Below are positions 13,113-40,494 of a stretch of 64,000 bases of DNA, piece after piece (within the stretch, counting starts at the first letter, position 1; every line of letters begins with the position of its first letter). The translations under genes were made by a program, and so were the position numbers. The notes below the pieces were generated by a model that saw only the letters and a program-made list of their open reading frames with translations, did not search any database and had not been told where the DNA came from. Source of the DNA: Gracilimonas sp. (GTDB lineage Bacteria > Bacteroidota > Rhodothermia > Balneolales > Balneolaceae); the NCBI GenBank assembly GCA_965227215.1, contig OZ245729.1, forward strand, positions 1,328,419-1,392,418. Reading direction: 5' to 3'.

Positions 13113-14249
13113 CTAAAGGTTGCCCCTGGCGTCTTGTTCGCGCTCGATGGCTTCGAAAAGGGCTTTGAAGTTTCCTTTTCCAAAACCACGGGCTCCTTTT
13201 CGCTGAATGATCTCAAAGAATAACGTTGGGCGATCTACAACGGGCTTGGTAAAAATCTGAAGCAGATATCCTTCGTCATCACGGTCCACTAAAATTCCCA
13301 AATCCTCCAGCTTGTCAATGGGTTCATCAATTTTACCCACCCGGTCTTCCAGCTCCTCGTAATAGGTAGTCGGCACTTTCAGGAACTCAACACCACGATC
13401 CCTCAGCTTTCCAACGGTATCGATGATATCACCGGTAAGCAGCGCCACATGCTGTACGCCCGGACCTTCAAAGAAATCCAGGTATTCTTCAATTTGAGAT
13501 TTCTTCTTTCCTTCGGCCGGTTCATTAATCGGGAATTTAATCATTCCTCGTCCACCGGCCATCACACGACTCATCAGTGCTGAGTATTCAGTGGAAATAT
13601 CTTTGTCATCAAAGCTGATGTATTGCGTGAAGCCGAGCACATCCCGGTAAAAATCTACCCAGTCTTCCATTCTGCCAAGCTCTACGTTCCCCACGCAGTG
13701 ATCTACAAACTCTACCCCAACGGGATCTGCTTTAATTAAACTTTCTCTGGGTTGAAATCCCGGCATGAAAATTCCTTCGTAGTTAGACCGATCTATGAAA
13801 GAGTGAATCACATCGCCATAGGTTTTAATGGCCGCCTTACGGATAGTACCGTGCTCGTCTTTCATATCATGAGGCTCCAGAACCGGCTCAGCTCCCCGCT
13901 TTACAGATTCGTTAAACGCCCGGTCCACATCTTCCACATGCATGGCAATATCTTTGATTCCATCTCCATGCTTTTGCACAAACTCCGCAATGGGCGAGTT
14001 GCTGTTCAGAGGAGCCGAAATCACAAACCGGATATTTCCCTGCTCAAGGTAATAGGATGCACGATCGCGGATGCCTGTTTCCAAGCCCGAATAGGCCTTC
14101 AGCTCAAATCCAAAGGTGGTAATATAGAAATGAGCGGCCTGCTTGGCGTTGTTTACATAATGCTCCACATAGTCCACATCCTGCAGTCCAAGGTGGTCAT
14201 CAAATTTCTCTTCAACGGGGCGTTCGAGCGTTTTTTCTTGTTCTGACAT
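13113..14249 (-). CDS. hppD: 4-hydroxyphenylpyruvate dioxygenase
   Basis: 378 aa. Two VOC/glyoxalase-like halves and the diagnostic C-terminus [30 protein letters not shown]. Confidence 0.9.
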
Positions 14250-14353
14250 ATCTACACTTATTTAATCTTCTATCTTGCTGAAGGATACAAAATAAAAAAG
14301 CGCTTCGATAGAGTAAAAATCTGGGCGACATGGCTTTTAATAAAACTATTCCG

Positions 14354-14433
14354 GGATTACCTACCCTTTACCGTTTTGTTTTCGAACTCGTTGCGAAGCT
14401 CCAGCTTCGTAATGCAATCCCGGAAGCTCCAGC
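14354..14433. repeat. REP-like palindromes, left flank of RAYT
   Basis: Blocks: ccctttacc (14354-14362); gttgcgaagctccagcttcgtaat (14390-14413, palindromic core cgaagct-cc-agcttcg); cccggaagctccagc (14419-14433). Confidence 0.7.
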
Positions 14434-14442
14434 CCCCCCCCC
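14433..14442. repeat. C10 homopolymer abutting RAYT stop codon
   Basis: Ten consecutive C residues (G10 on the coding strand) lie immediately 3' of the TGA stop at 14443-14445. Confidence 0.9.
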
Positions 14443-14976
14443 TCAAATAATTCTCTGGCTATCTATTAACCCGCTTCCTCCCAAATAATCCCTAGCTGAT
14501 GAATATCGCCAATCTCCCGGCTTATCCACATATCCTCGTTTAACCGGATTAAAGTGCACATAATTGATCTTCTGATGTAACACCTTCTCCATAGAAATTT
14601 GCTTGGGATGATACCCCTCCTGCCACACTTGGTATACGGACTCTTTCTTCCCTCTTTTTCGTGAAAATGCCAGCTGTTTCAAATAAAGTTGACTATTCTT
14701 TGATCTCAGAAAATCCAGGATTTGCTTGGCCGTATATGATTTGATGCTTTGCATACTTGTTTTTAAATCCTCGTGCTCAGCAATCAGATGAAAATGATTT
14801 TCCATGATGCACCAAGCATATATTTTGAGTCGATTTTGAGACTGATGATGCTTTATTGCTTCAATGAAATATCGTGCTATTTCCGGTTTTGAAAATAGCG
14901 GCAATCCATGAACAAAGCTACTGGTTAGCAGATAAGGATACCAGGGTTCGTGTTGTTTGTACCGGCTTCTTCCCAT
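14443..14976 (-). CDS. REP-associated tyrosine transposase (RAYT, IS200/IS605 Y1 transposase-like)
   Basis: 177 aa. HUH motif in MENHFHLIAE, catalytic-Tyr region INYVHFNPVKRGYV, and REP-type hairpins on both flanks. Confidence 0.8.
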   Translation of the reverse strand: MGRSRYKQHEPWYPYLLTSSFVHGLPLFSKPEIARYFIEAIKHHQSQNRLKIYAWCIMENHFHLIAEHEDLKTSMQSIKSYTAKQILDFLRSKNSQLYLKQLAFSRKRGKKESVYQVWQEGYHPKQISMEKVLHQKINYVHFNPVKRGYVDKPGDWRYSSARDYLGGSGLIDSQRII

Positions 14977-15075
14977 TGTCTTTTATCATAATAAGAGCGA
15001 TGACAATTGGATTCCTTACATATTTTTTTGGAAGAGCCATACTAATTATGCAGCTCCTGCGGCGTAATCCCCTCC

Positions 15076-15136
15076 GGGAAGCTGGAGCTTCCCTGACTGC
15101 GTTGCGAAGGTGGACCTTCGCAACGAGGGTAAAGGT
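15076..15136. repeat. REP-like palindromes, right flank of RAYT
   Basis: gggaagctggagcttccc (15076-15093, perfect 8+8 palindrome); gttgcgaaggtggaccttcgcaac (15101-15124, perfect 10-bp stem); ggtaaaggt (15128-15136), the inverted match of 14354-14362. Confidence 0.75.
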
Positions 15137-15151
15137 AAATTATGACTTATA

Positions 15152-16780
15152 TTATCTACGATTAAAAAGCCAAATCAACAGTATTGCTAAAACCACGATT
15201 GCTGCTGAAAACACAAATGAATACATAGGTACTAATAAAGAACTATCAGTAAGGAAAAGCTCTATATATGGTTTGATCAAAAATTCCGACAAACCTGTTA
15301 TTCCTACTAAACCAAATACGAGAGTCAGCCAGCGATCAACTGCCAACCTTCGCTTCTCAGTTTTATAGCGTATTTCATCCAGATACCAACGAGCTGTTTC
15401 TTTCGCAGATGGCACAAGATCCATTGTTCCAATATCTTTTAAGATACTCTTTAAAGCATCTGTTATTTCTCCGGCACTACCCGAATAATGCAAATCATCT
15501 TCTGCAGTACAAAGATTTCGATAAGAATCTATCAGATGCTCCTCTGAGGGAGGGTTTCTTATTAGTTTACATGCCCGTGCTAACCGCATGTTATAATACT
15601 CGATATGCTCTGCACGGCTTTGTTGACTCATAATAATTGACAATGTGTTAGGATCTTCCCACACATTTGATGGTACACCTTTGGGTTTTGTCCAAGTCCA
15701 TAAAAAAATTGCCCGAGTTCCATGAAAAGTAAAATCACCCATTGGGCGAAGGTCTTTTGGAAGCTCTGCATTGCTTTTGACATGAGTAGATCTCCACAAA
15801 ATTCTTAGAAGCGATTGTTTATATTTATCTAACAACTTCATTTTATTATCAGGTTGATCATCAAAACGCATTAGAGAAATTGAAGGACGACCCTGCCAAT
15901 GAAGTGGCTGGTTTGAAGCAAATTCTTTCTGACCATCTTCCGGGACAATTAAATTTGACAAGGCATTTCTGTAGACTTCTGTACAAAAATCAAAATTTGA
16001 CTCCCAATCATCTACTTGATTACCTCCCGCTGCTTTATGTAGCACTACCTTTTTTTTACCTATAAAAAAAGTAGTTCCCCCCTTTGATATAGATTCTTGA
16101 AATATTTTACGAGCATCCTTTCGCATTCTTTGGATGCTTCGTTTAATATTACGACCTTCGAGGGGTTTTCCGGCTAGCGTGATTTGATTCTTATAAGCAT
16201 GAGGGATAATTAAATCAGCTTCAAGTTTTTGGATTTTTGCATCAATCCAAACATCCACAAAATATCTATTGAAGAGATTCACTACTTCATTTATGAAGAA
16301 ATCTTCATCAGCTCTTTCCCATGCCCCCTCCAGTTGAAAGCTTAGAATTGCAATTCCATCATCAAAAAGCTTGACAGTTACATCTAACGGCAATTTTATT
16401 TCCTCATCCTCAAGAACTATGGGTGGAAGAAAAAGACGTACATATGGCGTTCTTTCTTCTTGTCCAATACGATTCTCATGAAATGATGCTTCTAAAGCAA
16501 AATTTAAATTTTCCCAGATGTGATCAGGTATTTCTTTCTCTAAAGAAACTCTGTGAGGTGAGTTCCATAATCTTCCTTTTGGCTGAATCCATTCGAACTG
16601 AACTTTTCCCTCTTTATCAGGATAGATGAATTTATTATCAGAGAAAAAGGCACTTGTTGAAATACCCAATTTTATAGCTTTCGTAGCAGTCTTAACTAAA
16701 TCAATCTCTGAAGCATAAAACCCGAGAGTATAGTTGTAAAAAACATTTGCTTGTTGAACTATCAAAGCTGAATGATTCAT
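15152..16780 (-). CDS. orphan 542-aa protein: large soluble N-terminal region plus C-terminal 2-TM hairpin
   Basis: Long uninterrupted ORF in a low-GC segment (18/60 G+C hand-counted for 15781-15840). The C-terminus has two hydrophobic helices, WLTLVFGLVGITGLSEFLI and LLVPMYSFVFSAAIVVLAILLIWLF. I recognise no family motif. Confidence 0.75.
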   Translation of the reverse strand: MNHSALIVQQANVFYNYTLGFYASEIDLVKTATKAIKLGISTSAFFSDNKFIYPDKEGKVQFEWIQPKGRLWNSPHRVSLEKEIPDHIWENLNFALEASFHENRIGQEERTPYVRLFLPPIVLEDEEIKLPLDVTVKLFDDGIAILSFQLEGAWERADEDFFINEVVNLFNRYFVDVWIDAKIQKLEADLIIPHAYKNQITLAGKPLEGRNIKRSIQRMRKDARKIFQESISKGGTTFFIGKKKVVLHKAAGGNQVDDWESNFDFCTEVYRNALSNLIVPEDGQKEFASNQPLHWQGRPSISLMRFDDQPDNKMKLLDKYKQSLLRILWRSTHVKSNAELPKDLRPMGDFTFHGTRAIFLWTWTKPKGVPSNVWEDPNTLSIIMSQQSRAEHIEYYNMRLARACKLIRNPPSEEHLIDSYRNLCTAEDDLHYSGSAGEITDALKSILKDIGTMDLVPSAKETARWYLDEIRYKTEKRRLAVDRWLTLVFGLVGITGLSEFLIKPYIELFLTDSSLLVPMYSFVFSAAIVVLAILLIWLFNRR

Positions 16781-17125
16781 ATTCTATAAATGGTTAACCA
16801 GTTGTTAAAAACCTTTCAATTTCAAAATCTCATCCGAAATCAACTTTAGAAATATTTCTTTCACCTCCCCCTCCACAATCTTCAAATCCTTTCAACTCAA
16901 CCTATACAACTCATAAGCAATCCTAGAATCGTTAATTCGGGTTATTGCTGGTTGAAGAATTCCATCCATTCGGCTTCATCAATCCCCGATAAATATTTAT
17001 TCAGTACCGCGTTTTGTAATAGTTACATATACGAAAACCCACTTCTTCAATTCTAAATCAATTTAATATCAACAAATTATAGCGAAAGCGATTGACAAAT
17101 TGAAAAGAGGATTTATACAAGTTTT

Positions 17126-17145
17126 GAAGCCGGAGCTTCCCTGAC
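17126..17145. repeat. Third copy of REP-like 20-mer
   Basis: gaagccggagcttccctgac matches 15078-15097 (gaagctggagcttccctgac) at 19 of 20 positions, in the same orientation. Confidence 0.7.
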
Positions 17146-17228
17146 AAAAAACTTCACTCTTCTTAATTCAGAACCGCTTATCTTTTCGCCTTCCATCCTA
17201 CAACACATTGACTTTTAGTTTATTTAAG

Positions 17229-20116
<2,888 letters not shown>

Positions 20117-35187: not shown

Positions 35188-35316
35188 GCAGCACCTTTTC
35201 ATCTTTGATTCGTAATGCTTCGGGGAGTGTTAGATTTTTAGGATAAAAACAGTAATCTCCCCTTTTCTGTATCCTGTTTGTTATACAGGTAACCCAATCA
35301 TTACAAATAAACCGCT

Positions 35317-35802: not shown

Positions 35803-36223
35803 ACCCTTTGGAATCCTAGGACATTTATTAGAATATAAAAACATCTCCCCCCTTTTTTTAAAAGCTACTTCAGAATTTTCTTGCTAATCACTTTCCTGAG
35901 ACAGGAAATATTGTCAGACCACATAAAATCACCGACAGTCACTATGACATACATATATATAGAGTGCATTATCACTATAAATAAAAATTTATTAGCACTC
36001 TTAAATTATTTTAAAGGCGCTTTTTTGAAGGATGAATAAGGGTAATTTGATAAAATTTGAATAAATATTTATGCATTATTCAGTCTCGTATAATTTTATG
36101 AAATTTTATTATCCATAAGTTTAATTGATATTGGTTTTACAGAATTACACGTATCTGTCAGTATTCTTTTTTTTGGCATAAATATTGCCATTTACTTTAC
36201 AACCGTAAACTAACCTACTTATT

Positions 36224-36787
36224 ATGCCAGATGAAACGACTTTCAAAATATCATTCACAGATAAGTCCCTCGAAATTTCTGGGAGTGAAGAATTTGTAAA
36301 ACAACAGCTGGACGACTTCAAGTCATTGATAAATGCGTCAATTAGTAGACTTATAACAGAAGATGGTTCTACTTATGCTGATGAAGAGAATGATTTAATT
36401 ACTTATGACAACAATGAATTAGGGTCTGCACTTACAGGTCAATTTTCAAATTTCGCTGAAGACGTTATAGTTATAGACGATGATGAAGTGAATGTAATTG
36501 CAAATGTGGAAGGTAGCACTGTTGCTGCCAGAATGATCGATTTTGTTTTACTTTATATGTTGGGTAACAGACAAATCGGCAATGAAGAAATCGATTTTAA
36601 TGAACTCCGAGAAGCATGTGAAAGTTATGGTGAATTTGATGGGCCAAACTTTTCGCGACATATGAATAGCAAAAAAAACAAACCCTACTTCATTATTAAA
36701 GGCTCAGGAAGAAAACAAAGTGCAAAATTAACTAGACCTGGAATTAAAAAGGCTGAAGAATTAATCGAACAACTATCACATGATTAA
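36224..36787 (+). CDS. island gene A: hypothetical protein (N-terminal LEISG module, acidic linker, C-terminal wHTH-like region)
   Basis: 187 aa in a low-GC segment. Its stop overlaps the gene B start by 8 nt (ATGATTAA). The N-terminus FKISFTDKSLEISGSEEFVKQQLDDFKSLI is paralogous to gene C. Confidence 0.75.
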   Translation: MPDETTFKISFTDKSLEISGSEEFVKQQLDDFKSLINASISRLITEDGSTYADEENDLITYDNNELGSALTGQFSNFAEDVIVIDDDEVNVIANVEGSTVAARMIDFVLLYMLGNRQIGNEEIDFNELREACESYGEFDGPNFSRHMNSKKNKPYFIIKGSGRKQSAKLTRPGIKKAEELIEQLSHD

Positions 36788-37556
36788 CGAATTAATCGAA
36801 TCTGTTCTAAAAGATTCTTTCCCAATCGAAATTGCTGATAAATTACTTTCTACTTTTCTAGAAGTAGAAAGAAACTACTCGTTACAAAATTGGAAAGTTA
36901 GCGAATTAGAATCTGGACATTTTGTTGAAAGTACAAGAAGAGCACTAGACTTTAAGCTTTCTAATAGTTTCACTCCTTTCAACAAAAGTTTAGGGAGTTT
37001 CAATTCTAAAGCACTCTCTAAATACGAAAATAGTAAGGGCCATGAATCATACAGAATAATTATACCCAGAGTTCTATTCTCTATCTATTGTATAAGAAAT
37101 AAAAGGGGTGTAGGACATATTAATGAAGTATCACCTAACAAGATTGACGCGAGTTCAATACTTAGTTCAGTAAAATGGACAATGGCCGAAATACTTCGAC
37201 TTGAATCAGACTTAGACTTTAGTCAGACATCAGATTTAATTGATAAAGTAACAAGTCGAAATATTGAGTTACTCTGGAAAGAAGATGATTTCACAGTTAT
37301 ACTTAGCAATAGTTTGTCAGCCTCTGATGAAGTACTAGTACTGCTATTAGATGACAACCCTCAAGGAATTGACAAGCTGTTTGAGTTGGTAAACTACACC
37401 AATAAAACACACTTTAAAAACAGAATCTTAAAGCGTCTTGAAAATGAAAAGTTAATCAAGATCAAAGATAATCAATGCTTCATTTCTCCGCTTGGAATTA
37501 TGGTTGCAGAAAATTTAATACTAAAACATAAAGAAGGTAATTATGGAAAATTTTAG
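36780..37556 (+). CDS. island gene B: hypothetical protein with HEPN-like Rx6H motif and C-terminal wHTH-like region
   Basis: 258 aa. It overlaps A by 8 nt and C by 14 nt. Motif CIRNKRGVGHI (nt 37095-37118). The C-terminus KRLENEKLIKIKDNQCFISPLGIMVAENLI is wHTH-like. Confidence 0.75.
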   Translation: MINELIESVLKDSFPIEIADKLLSTFLEVERNYSLQNWKVSELESGHFVESTRRALDFKLSNSFTPFNKSLGSFNSKALSKYENSKGHESYRIIIPRVLFSIYCIRNKRGVGHINEVSPNKIDASSILSSVKWTMAEILRLESDLDFSQTSDLIDKVTSRNIELLWKEDDFTVILSNSLSASDEVLVLLLDDNPQGIDKLFELVNYTNKTHFKNRILKRLENEKLIKIKDNQCFISPLGIMVAENLILKHKEGNYGKF

Positions 37557-38025
37557 TTTCAGAATAAATCTCATAGAACAGGAATTAGAAATCTCTGGCG
37601 ACTCTCAATTATTTGAAAAATTTGAAAATGATTTTAAAAATTTAATTGAGAAACTAAAATCTTCAGCAAATACACCTATTGGGAAAACTGAAGTTAAAAA
37701 AGATAGCAATAATCAGAATCCTAGTAGTTTCAAGGAGCCGAAAACTGAGTCTTTTGGCGAATATTATTCAAAATTTCCACGAGACATAAAAGATGTAGAT
37801 AAAATATTAATTGCAGGATATTTCAGTCAACTTCAAAATGAGAATAATATTTTTTCAACAAACGACGCTTCGACTCTATTAGTTGATCAAGGAGTTAAAC
37901 TTTCTAACCCATCGGCTTTTTTAAATTCAAACTTGAAGGCAAAAAAGGTTTTCAAACATAATGGAAATTTTAGGATTTCGGAATTAGGGATAGAGTACCT
38001 TAAAGAAATCGCAGAACAAAATTAA
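37543..38025 (+). CDS. island gene C: hypothetical protein, paralog of gene A
   Basis: 160 aa. The N-terminus FSFRINLIEQELEISGDSQLFEKFENDFKNLI aligns ungapped with gene A (12 of 32 identical). A low-complexity linker follows, then the C-terminus FRISELGIEYLKEI. Confidence 0.75.
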   Translation: MENFSFRINLIEQELEISGDSQLFEKFENDFKNLIEKLKSSANTPIGKTEVKKDSNNQNPSSFKEPKTESFGEYYSKFPRDIKDVDKILIAGYFSQLQNENNIFSTNDASTLLVDQGVKLSNPSAFLNSNLKAKKVFKHNGNFRISELGIEYLKEIAEQN

Positions 38026-38174
38026 CTTTGGTCTACCTCTTCAACAAATCCCGGATCTGGATTGGCTATGTCTTTTCTGAGAAGTTTGTTGATATGAGGT
38101 TTCGTTAGCCTCTTACCCAAATCTGCGTTATTTTCAGGAAACGTTTACTTTGAAATAAAATCCCTTGTTCATTT

Positions 38175-39836: not shown

Positions 39837-40086
39837 AGATGAGGGTGTTTGATTAGTCTTGCCATATGTACCAGCCGGTAGATGATTGTAAGAGCGGCTT
39901 TTATAATAAAGCTAAAGCCCACACCATTTGCAATAAGCCACTCTTATTTAATGGAATTTTAATGGAGAAATTGATAGTTGAAAGTTGATAGTGTGACAGG
40001 TTTTGCAAAATAATTTGTAAGGAATCCCCATGCACTGGCTCTAACTATAAAATCAAAATAACCTATACAGTTATAACATTTAGTGA

Positions 40087-40479
40087 ATGAGAGAAGACAC
40101 TACCAATAGAGATTAAGGAAGATATTGTTTGGAAAATGGAAGCTTACAGATTGAGTCTGTTTTTATCTGATGCTTGTTGGGAAGATACCAATCTAATTCT
40201 TGCAGAAAATAGATATTCACTTGCTGATCAACTATATGATCGGTAGGCTCAATCAGTGCAAATATAATCGAAGGATATTCCAGAATATCTAAAAAAGAAA
40301 AGGCCCGATTTTATGAAATATCATTAGGCTCGGCCAGAGAAGCAAAGGATTGGTATTTCAAATCCAGGCATCTGCTTACTCAGGAAAAATCTCATTCTAG
40401 GATTAAGTTTCTTACCTCAATAATCAAATTACTGCAAGCTATGATCTCTGATCAAAGATGGAAAAGCAGAAATACTTAG
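40087..40479 (+). pseudogene. frameshifted four-helix-bundle protein gene (23S rRNA intervening-sequence protein family)
   Basis: My own translation. Frame 1 (40091-40246) gives ..LPIEIKEDIVWKMEAYRLSLFLSDACWEDTNLILAENRYSLADQLYDR*. A shifted frame (40240-40479) gives SVGSISANIIEGYSRISKKEKARFYEISLGSAREAKDWYFKSRHLL...*. The only upstream ATG (40087) is in a third frame, so there are at least 2 frameshifts. Confidence 0.7.
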
Positions 40480-40494
40480 ATTACCATCACTCTT

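Follow-up and report, generated by a model that had tools for sequence, protein, structure and literature searches.

A mobile three-gene cassette of Gracilimonas sp. encoding a predicted Abi_C-like HEPN ribonuclease and two paralogous winged-helix partner proteins

HEPN ribonucleases (RNases) are the executioners in many immune systems, including Cas13, Csm6, AbiJ/SadR, AbiV, and RnlA. How the RNase is silenced and how it is triggered are the questions open for every new HEPN family. Membership of the HEPN superfamily is recognised by a conserved Rx4-6H motif, an all-alpha up-down helical bundle in which this motif sits at the junction ahead of the last core helix, and metal-independent endoRNase activity. 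SadR, the characterised Abi_C RNase of Staphylococcus aureus, has the motif RNEYGDAH, in which R, N, and H are essential, and the five-residue spacer of R-N-x5-H is the commonest one in Abi_C proteins (PMC13590631). AbiV of Lactococcus is a HEPN RNase with a co-encoded antitoxin and forms a type III toxin-antitoxin (TA) system of phage defence (bioRxiv 10.1101/2024.05.05.592566). PADLOC has no usable Abi_C model (PMC13590631). Here we describe a cassette of three overlapping plus-strand open reading frames (ORFs), named A, B, and C, in a 64,000-nucleotide stretch of Gracilimonas sp. DNA (assembly GCA_965227215.1, contig OZ245729.1, positions 1,328,419 to 1,392,418), which is called the window below. 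B is the predicted HEPN-type effector, and A and C are its partner proteins. An earlier sequence-only reading of the window had singled out this cassette as a candidate for an undescribed system, and the three ORFs with their overlaps were reproduced exactly (Table 1).

The N-terminal domain of B carried the main evidence. Across 36 aligned B sequences from Bacteria and Archaea, some with as little as 27% identity, the stretch I-R-N-K-R-G-V-G-H was near-invariant. R106, K108, and H113 were invariant in 36/36 sequences, and N107, R109, G110, V111, and G112 were at least 90% conserved. RNKRGVGH is an Rx6H motif, the HEPN signature, and falls within the conserved Rx4-6H range. Its R-polar-x5-H spacing (RN+KRGVG+H), typical of Abi_C, is identical to that of SadR. 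In the AlphaFold model of full-length B, with a predicted local distance difference test (pLDDT) score of 91, the N-terminal domain was all-alpha and a winged helix came after it. This winged helix superposed on MarR-type regulators with a root-mean-square deviation of about 2 A across some 75 residues (Foldseek against the PDB). Because the full-length search matched only this winged helix-turn-helix (wHTH), the N-terminal domain was modelled separately (residues 1-161, pLDDT 93.8, predicted template modelling score 0.89). In this model the motif spans the last part of helix 89-106 and the loop that leads to helix 119-142. The best Foldseek matches of the N-terminal domain were almost all HEPN proteins (AbiV, AF_0298, TT1696, Csm6, and 4nqf). 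When the 36 members were scanned singly, Abi_C (PF14355) was the sole recurrent Pfam family (7/36, best E = 0.0033). In five divergent members the match was in register, with residues 96-146 aligned to profile positions 37-77 and spanning the helix-RNKRGVGH-helix segment. From the motif, the HEPN-dominated fold matches, the in-register Abi_C matches, and the SadR spacing, we assign the N-terminal domain of B to the HEPN domains with high confidence, and read it as a divergent, Abi_C-like one that is joined to a C-terminal wHTH. Pfam Abi_C itself does not include B.

B belongs to a large family. A word-indexed search gave 286 matches, all of them 'hypothetical' and without Pfam domains, and an exhaustive search gave 1,174 representatives of 50%-identity clusters at E<=1e-3 (804 at <=1e-10). 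The homologues were almost all 250-265 aa long. Genomic matches came from Bacteroidota, Pseudomonadota, Bacillota, Chloroflexota, Acidobacteriota, Verrucomicrobiota, and candidate phyla radiation (CPR) bacteria, and among Archaea from Woesearchaeota and Methanoregula, with a patchy distribution. Profiles of the B family and of the partner family gave no match, or one spurious match, against PDB sequences, and the BFVD viral fold library gave no match. A 290-aa 'hypothetical protein' on the archaeal megaplasmid PL131 of Natronomonas pharaonis (WP_011324391.1, L085:3782-4654) showed only the HEPN core of B, with 33% identity over B residues 74-158, and adjoined an ISH6-like transposase. It may represent a more distant branch of the family.

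A and C shared 36% identity across their first 45 residues. Profiles of the upstream-type and downstream-type homologues aligned over their full length (HHalign probability 98.7%, E=1.9e-16), and the two families merged under iteration with hidden Markov models (HMMs). By these comparisons A and C are paralogues and form one 'partner' family. Its N-terminal domain of about 45 aa has the consensus ..K.ris l..g.[FLI]E[IL][ES]G[ST]E.FV..q and is followed by a variable linker. The C-terminal domain of about 90 aa (PG..K..ALL…E.R..C…G..D..NFS…K…G…KLT.PG…A..L) aligned to the wHTH of B (HHalign E=1.4e-5, probability 80%), with the common motifs N..F and [IL][ST]P.G…AE, and A, B, and C therefore all appear to have a related winged helix at the C-terminus. 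Two types of partner N-terminal domain were seen on a constant wHTH, a beta-hairpin type and, in a short subtype, a coiled-coil type. Weak recurrent matches to DUF6429 (8/73 members) and PadR (2/73) fell in the last ~30 residues, and literature searches for DUF6429 gave no description. The mean column identity was 22% for the partner vs 43-57% for B, which indicates that the partner evolves much faster than B. The sequence-only reading had seen two paralogous wHTH-like proteins around a HEPN-like/wHTH protein, and this picture is borne out by the A/C profile alignment, the invariant Rx6H motif, and the modelled MarR-like wHTH.

The linkage of partner and B was near-obligate. In at least 68 of the 79 non-redundant loci, B had an HMM-confirmed partner-family gene as its direct neighbour in the same orientation, mostly upstream and usually with an overlap of 4-14 nt, and five further divergent loci had an upstream ORF of partner size with only a weak match. 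The order was partner-B in 51 loci (53 with L039 and L046), partner-B-partner in 7, and B-partner in 8. A partner-family ORF downstream of B, C-like by position, was present in 16/79 loci, or 17-18 ORFs when redundant loci are counted. The A-B-C order, whose conservation the sequence-only reading had left as a check, recurred in at least seven Bacteroidota genomes (Flagellimonas, Allomuricauda, Ulvibacterium, Crocinitomicaceae, and other Flavobacteriales). Partner relatives that were retrieved independently likewise preceded a B-type gene. A search for a third conserved gene found none, as the most widespread neighbour family occurred in 4 loci, and the partner-B module is therefore self-contained. 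In a few genomes B was interrupted and the partner was kept, by an insertion in L063 and by an in-frame stop in L046. In L063, a Gammaproteobacteria metagenome-assembled genome, the insertion of ~1.3 kb (L063:6348-7678) carries a 387-aa ORF, is presumably an insertion sequence (IS) element, and leaves the upstream partner intact.

Mobility and selection were analysed against L084, a related metagenomic contig that was the reference for synonymous divergence (dS), the ratio of nonsynonymous to synonymous divergence (dN/dS), and identity. L084 carries the cassette at the same site as the window, after the DUF6265 gene. DNA identity between the two rose from about 84% to about 96% exactly at the A start codon and stayed high until the end of C; the leader was 84% identical vs 96% for the cassette genes. 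The dS values of A, B, and C were 0.125, 0.145, and 0.118, and those of the flanking genes were 2.19 (murI), 0.93 (DUF6265), 0.79 (ThiBP-like), and 1.62 (PhoH/PIN). The synonymous divergence of the cassette was thus 6-15x below that of the flanking core genes, which shows that the lineages exchanged the cassette recently, long after they had diverged. The dN/dS ratio was 0.11-0.22 (A 0.11, C 0.22), indicating that A, B, and C are under purifying selection as functional genes. An apparent B pseudogene in L084 was rejected, because the 'frameshift' comes down to one homopolymer, A4 lengthened to A5, which is probably a long-read sequencing error. L084 also carries an OPT-family transporter gene between murI and the DUF6265 gene (L084:1626-3674), missing at window 35188-35316, and an MscL gene between C and the ThiBP-like gene (L084:6555-6968), missing at window 38026-38174. 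These two differences make the neighbourhood a variable hotspot.

The AT shift of the module was general, with its GC content below that of the flanks in 68/70 loci and a median difference of -8.9 points (Wilcoxon p=4e-13). The B family had no match in 50,697 phage genomes and one in 2.9 million viral contigs, and it is a chromosomal islet cargo. Together with the dS values and the cassette's place as the strongest compositional outlier of the window, the shift upholds the horizontal acquisition proposed from the sequence alone.

One locus gave a hint that the effector may be exchanged. The short partner subtype has a coiled-coil N-terminus and a wHTH. In L041 (1375-3080) the order is partner-partner-B. 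In L092 (4402-6157, Logan SRR19971024 contig) it is partner-partner-X, and the short partner is orthologous to that of L041 (39% identity, E=2e-28, full length). Protein X has 248 aa, with an N-terminal wHTH and a C-terminal domain that contains the motif FHDRLLIID…GPS and has PLDc_2 as its best Pfam match. The L092 locus adjoins the type I restriction-modification (R-M) genes hsdS/hsdM/hsdR. The comparison hints that a PLD-like nuclease protein has here replaced the HEPN effector on a constant partner. Swapping nuclease domains while the regulator stays constant is a hallmark of conflict systems.

The neighbours of the module were of many types, including housekeeping enzymes, Cro/C1 helix-turn-helix regulators, resolvases, transposases, DUF3800, and a few AriA/PtuA-type matches. 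In Marinobacter the module was near an integrase, RNase H, and a resolvase, and type I R-M genes were near it in L090 and L092. In Pseudomonas aeruginosa (L086:6969-13230, and L087) the arrangement was HigB/HigA, an IS transposase, partner-B, and a retron-like pair, followed by a Pf-type filamentous prophage. The retron-like pair comprises PRTase-CE (PF24390), a 102-aa ORF, and RVT_1, and the prophage genes include Zot, coat B, and DUF5447.

From these observations we propose that the cassette is an undescribed, mobile, protein-regulated module of the HEPN RNase toxin or abortive-infection type, in which A and C hold B inactive, and we give this reading about an even chance. B would be the effector. 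RNA would be cut by its Abi_C-like HEPN domain at the N-terminus, with R106/N107/H113 as catalytic residues and probably in the dimeric form of other HEPN enzymes, and the winged helix at its C-terminus would serve to bind either nucleic acid or the partners. A and C, each with an N-terminal beta-hairpin/helix domain, a linker, and a wHTH related to that of B, would bind B and keep it inactive by a protein-protein control like that of type II TA systems. Translational coupling would set the three proteins in a fixed stoichiometry, and the wHTH domains of A and C would probably have a second role, the autoregulation of the AT-rich promoter. On phage infection, or when the partner is lost, the RNase would be freed and growth arrested, in the manner of abortive infection or addiction. 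The RNase activity and toxicity of B, its neutralisation by A and C, the trigger, and an anti-phage role are predictions of this model, and the defence or addiction-type function that the sequence-only reading had suggested is likewise something we infer. The adjacent, co-oriented small genes with 4-14 nt overlaps in at least 68/79 loci are the arrangement of type II TA pairs. A type III mechanism like that of AbiV, with an RNA antitoxin, was rejected, as the leader showed no Rfam match, no repeat array, and no unusual RNA structure (folding z=-1.2).

Several results weigh against this proposal. In single-sequence scans A, B, and C had no significant match in Pfam, PADLOC, NCBIfam, or PHROGs, and the window's B had no Pfam match at all; no HEPN family was reached by B at significance with Foldseek or Pfam. 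The Foldseek matches of its N-terminal domain were weak (E>=0.46, template modelling score 0.3-0.48), and the best Abi_C score in the family was sub-threshold, at 17.9 bits vs a cut-off of 24. A, C, and the 73 partner members likewise had no significant Pfam, PDB, or PADLOC relatives. The median isoelectric point (pI) of the partner family was about 6.1 and not consistently acidic, so the classic pattern of acidic antitoxin and basic toxin is weak. The effector swap is based on one locus and a sub-threshold PLDc_2 match (E=0.015). Among 72,556 plasmids the B family had one distant match, unlike many type II TA families. In bulk Pfam and PADLOC scans the 146 nearest neighbours were mostly miscellaneous or housekeeping, with scattered defence or mobile-element matches, and with neighbours so heterogeneous an enrichment in defence islands was not demonstrated. 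Of the check for neighbouring defence genes that the sequence-only reading had set, individual examples were found and the enrichment stayed anecdotal.

The same features can be read differently if A and C are sensors or activators: the wHTHs of all three proteins would detect nucleic acid from an invader, or a protein of a phage, and then switch on an otherwise latent HEPN RNase. The related wHTH domains in A, B, and C would fit such a role, as would the variable N-terminal domain of the partner (beta-hairpin or coiled-coil) on a constant wHTH and an exchangeable effector (HEPN or PLD-like), a trait of sensor-effector defence systems. SadR and other single-protein Abi_C RNases, moreover, do without an antitoxin (PMC13590631). 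However, tight translational coupling in which the partner mostly comes first is commoner for antitoxin-toxin pairs, and the disrupted gene was B, not the partner. We consider a sensor or activator role unlikely. A purely selfish addiction module (a TA pair stabilising genomic islets without a role in phage defence) would also explain a compact, overlapping, AT-rich, and horizontally exchanged cassette whose nearest neighbours are often ordinary genes, not defence genes, and which adjoins the HigBA TA genes and an IS in P. aeruginosa. Against it stand the near-absence from plasmids and phages, where addiction modules thrive, the R-M and retron-like genes in some contexts, and the defence function of those Abi_C-type HEPN RNases so far tested (PMC13590631). 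We regard pure addiction as quite improbable.

A role outside conflict was considered as well, with A, B, and C as three wHTH DNA-binding regulators and the helical domain of B as a non-catalytic, HEPN-like sensor that binds a ligand or nucleotide. The wHTH in A, B, and C is compatible with it, HEPN domains were first described as nucleotide-binding, and no HEPN match was significant for B. But R106, K108, and H113, invariant across Bacteria and Archaea, together with N107 at >=90%, point to catalysis, and no conserved target operon or neighbour was found. The patchy distribution driven by horizontal gene transfer and the AT shift also speak against it, and a housekeeping regulator would hardly exchange HEPN for a PLD-like nuclease domain. 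We regard this role as very improbable. Beyond the module in which A and C restrain B, the cassette might be the first example of a defence family that spans the prokaryotes and has so far gone undescribed, in which wHTH partners with variable N-terminal sensors control interchangeable wHTH-tagged nucleases (HEPN RNase or PLD-like) and the shared winged helices couple partner, effector, and invader nucleic acid. We hold this wider proposal only tentatively and think it possible rather than probable.

Table 1. Coordinates of the cassette features in the window.
Feature	Position	Strand	Size, composition, or basis
Leader, AT-rich non-coding, presumed promoter/operator region	35803..36223	+	421 nt, 27.6% GC
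Sigma-70-like match, best in leader	36196-36225	+	sequence match
Gene A, upstream member of partner family	36224..36787	+	187 aa, pI 4.45
Gene A N-terminal ~45-aa domain, motif ..lEIsGSEeFV..	36224-36358	+	family alignment
Gene A acidic linker, net charge -14	36359-36493	+	
Gene A C-terminal wHTH-like domain	about 36506-36778	+	profile alignment
Gene B, predicted effector	36780..37556	+	258 aa; HEPN-type + wHTH
Gene B N-terminal all-alpha HEPN-type domain, residues 1-158	36780-37253	+	AlphaFold, Foldseek
Codons R106-N-K-R-G-V-G-H113, predicted HEPN catalytic motif (R-N-x5-H)	37095..37118	+	conservation, 36 sequences
Gene B C-terminal MarR-like winged helix, residues 160-251	37257-37532	+	AlphaFold, Foldseek
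Gene C, downstream paralogue of A	37543..38025	+	160 aa, pI 5.3
Gene C N-terminal domain	37543-37677	+	similarity to A
Gene C C-terminal wHTH-like domain	about 37768-38019	+	profile alignment

A and B overlap by 8 nt (ATGATTAA) and B and C by 14 nt (ATGGAAAATTTTAG). The GC content was 34.6% for A, 31.8% for B, and 29.2% for C, compared with 44.0% for the whole window and 42.8-44.8% for the flanking murI, DUF6265, ThiBP-like, and PhoH/PIN genes. The 36-38 kb bin (31.3% GC) was the minimum of the 32 window bins, and the remaining bins had 38-49%. The sequence-only reading had given the length of the AT-rich leader correctly, and its hand counts of G+C were both exact (19/60 for 36241-36300, 29/60 for murI). 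Its neighbour identities agree with Pfam, which gave E=4e-32 for the DUF6265 gene and weak Thiamine_BP/YkoF matches for the 81-aa ThiBP-like protein. No convincing terminal repeats or att sites were found around the island. A 52-aa TTG-initiated ORF within the leader (window 35881-36039) is probably spurious.

Two other low-GC stretches were seen in the window. The second-lowest GC stretch, at 14001-18000 (38-40% vs about 44-45%), may be another acquired segment. Between PhoH/PIN and a SpoU-type methyltransferase-like gene, ~650 nt at 39837-40494 had 32-35% GC, with two short ORFs (40-44 aa) at the 5' end and none of >=40 aa in 40036-40457; the window-wide Rfam scan at the gathering threshold gave no match there.

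The B family offers a HEPN system compacted into two or three proteins, with regulators of a family not seen before and a hint that effectors may be swapped. Should it be validated, the catalogues of defence and TA systems would gain a new family, thousands of gene pairs now labelled 'hypothetical' could be better annotated, and a small RNase switch under protein control would become available. Against this stands the large number of candidate defence and TA systems. The homologous pair of P. aeruginosa, beside the retron-like locus and the Pf prophage, gives a tractable host for testing.

No named system matched the cassette, as the sequence-only reading had stated. In PADLOC-DB v2.0.0 the window proteins, the 36 B members, and the 73 partner members showed only noise-level matches (E>=1e-4), and in the literature library that was searched no paper described the B family or this architecture. 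AbiV (PDB 9bj5-9bj7) was the top structural match of the N-terminal domain of B, a weak one (E about 0.5, template modelling score 0.3-0.4). Its antitoxin is an RNA and it has no wHTH, whereas the partners of the cassette are proteins and B carries a wHTH. HEPN-MNT and other type II HEPN TA pairs have small co-oriented overlapping genes, a HEPN RNase, and mobility in common with the cassette. In HEPN-MNT, however, the partner is a minimal nucleotidyltransferase (MNT), and A, C, and the 73 partner members showed no MNT domain and no significant domain of another kind. Unlike these pairs, the window cassette has a duplicated partner (A and C) and a toxin with its own wHTH.

Csm6/Csx1, the CARF/wHTH-HEPN ancillary RNases of CRISPR systems, carry a HEPN RNase and a wHTH on one polypeptide, as B does. 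Csm6 HEPN domains were among the fold matches of B, and PADLOC gave weak matches to CARF and WH_III-A models. These matches were far below significance, and B has a different domain order and neither a CARF domain nor a CRISPR-cas neighbourhood. With the Abi_C/AbiJ proteins (PF14355; Lactococcus AbiJ, S. aureus SadR), B shares the R-N-x5-H motif (RNEYGDAH in SadR, RNKRGVGH in B) and a mobile, patchy distribution. B falls below the PF14355 threshold (24 bits), and in Abi_C/AbiJ proteins the HEPN domain is C-terminal after an N-terminal accessory domain of the AbiJ-NTD type, whereas that of B is N-terminal and followed by the wHTH (PMC3710099, PMC13590631). AbiJ and SadR also act as single proteins, whereas B nearly always comes with a partner from a dedicated family. 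What is new here is this undescribed partner regulator family, and a B family of 1,174 clusters that had no name, Pfam entry, or defence-finder model. Abi_C/AbiJ-type HEPN RNases are the closest known kind, and the cassette is a variant of that known theme.

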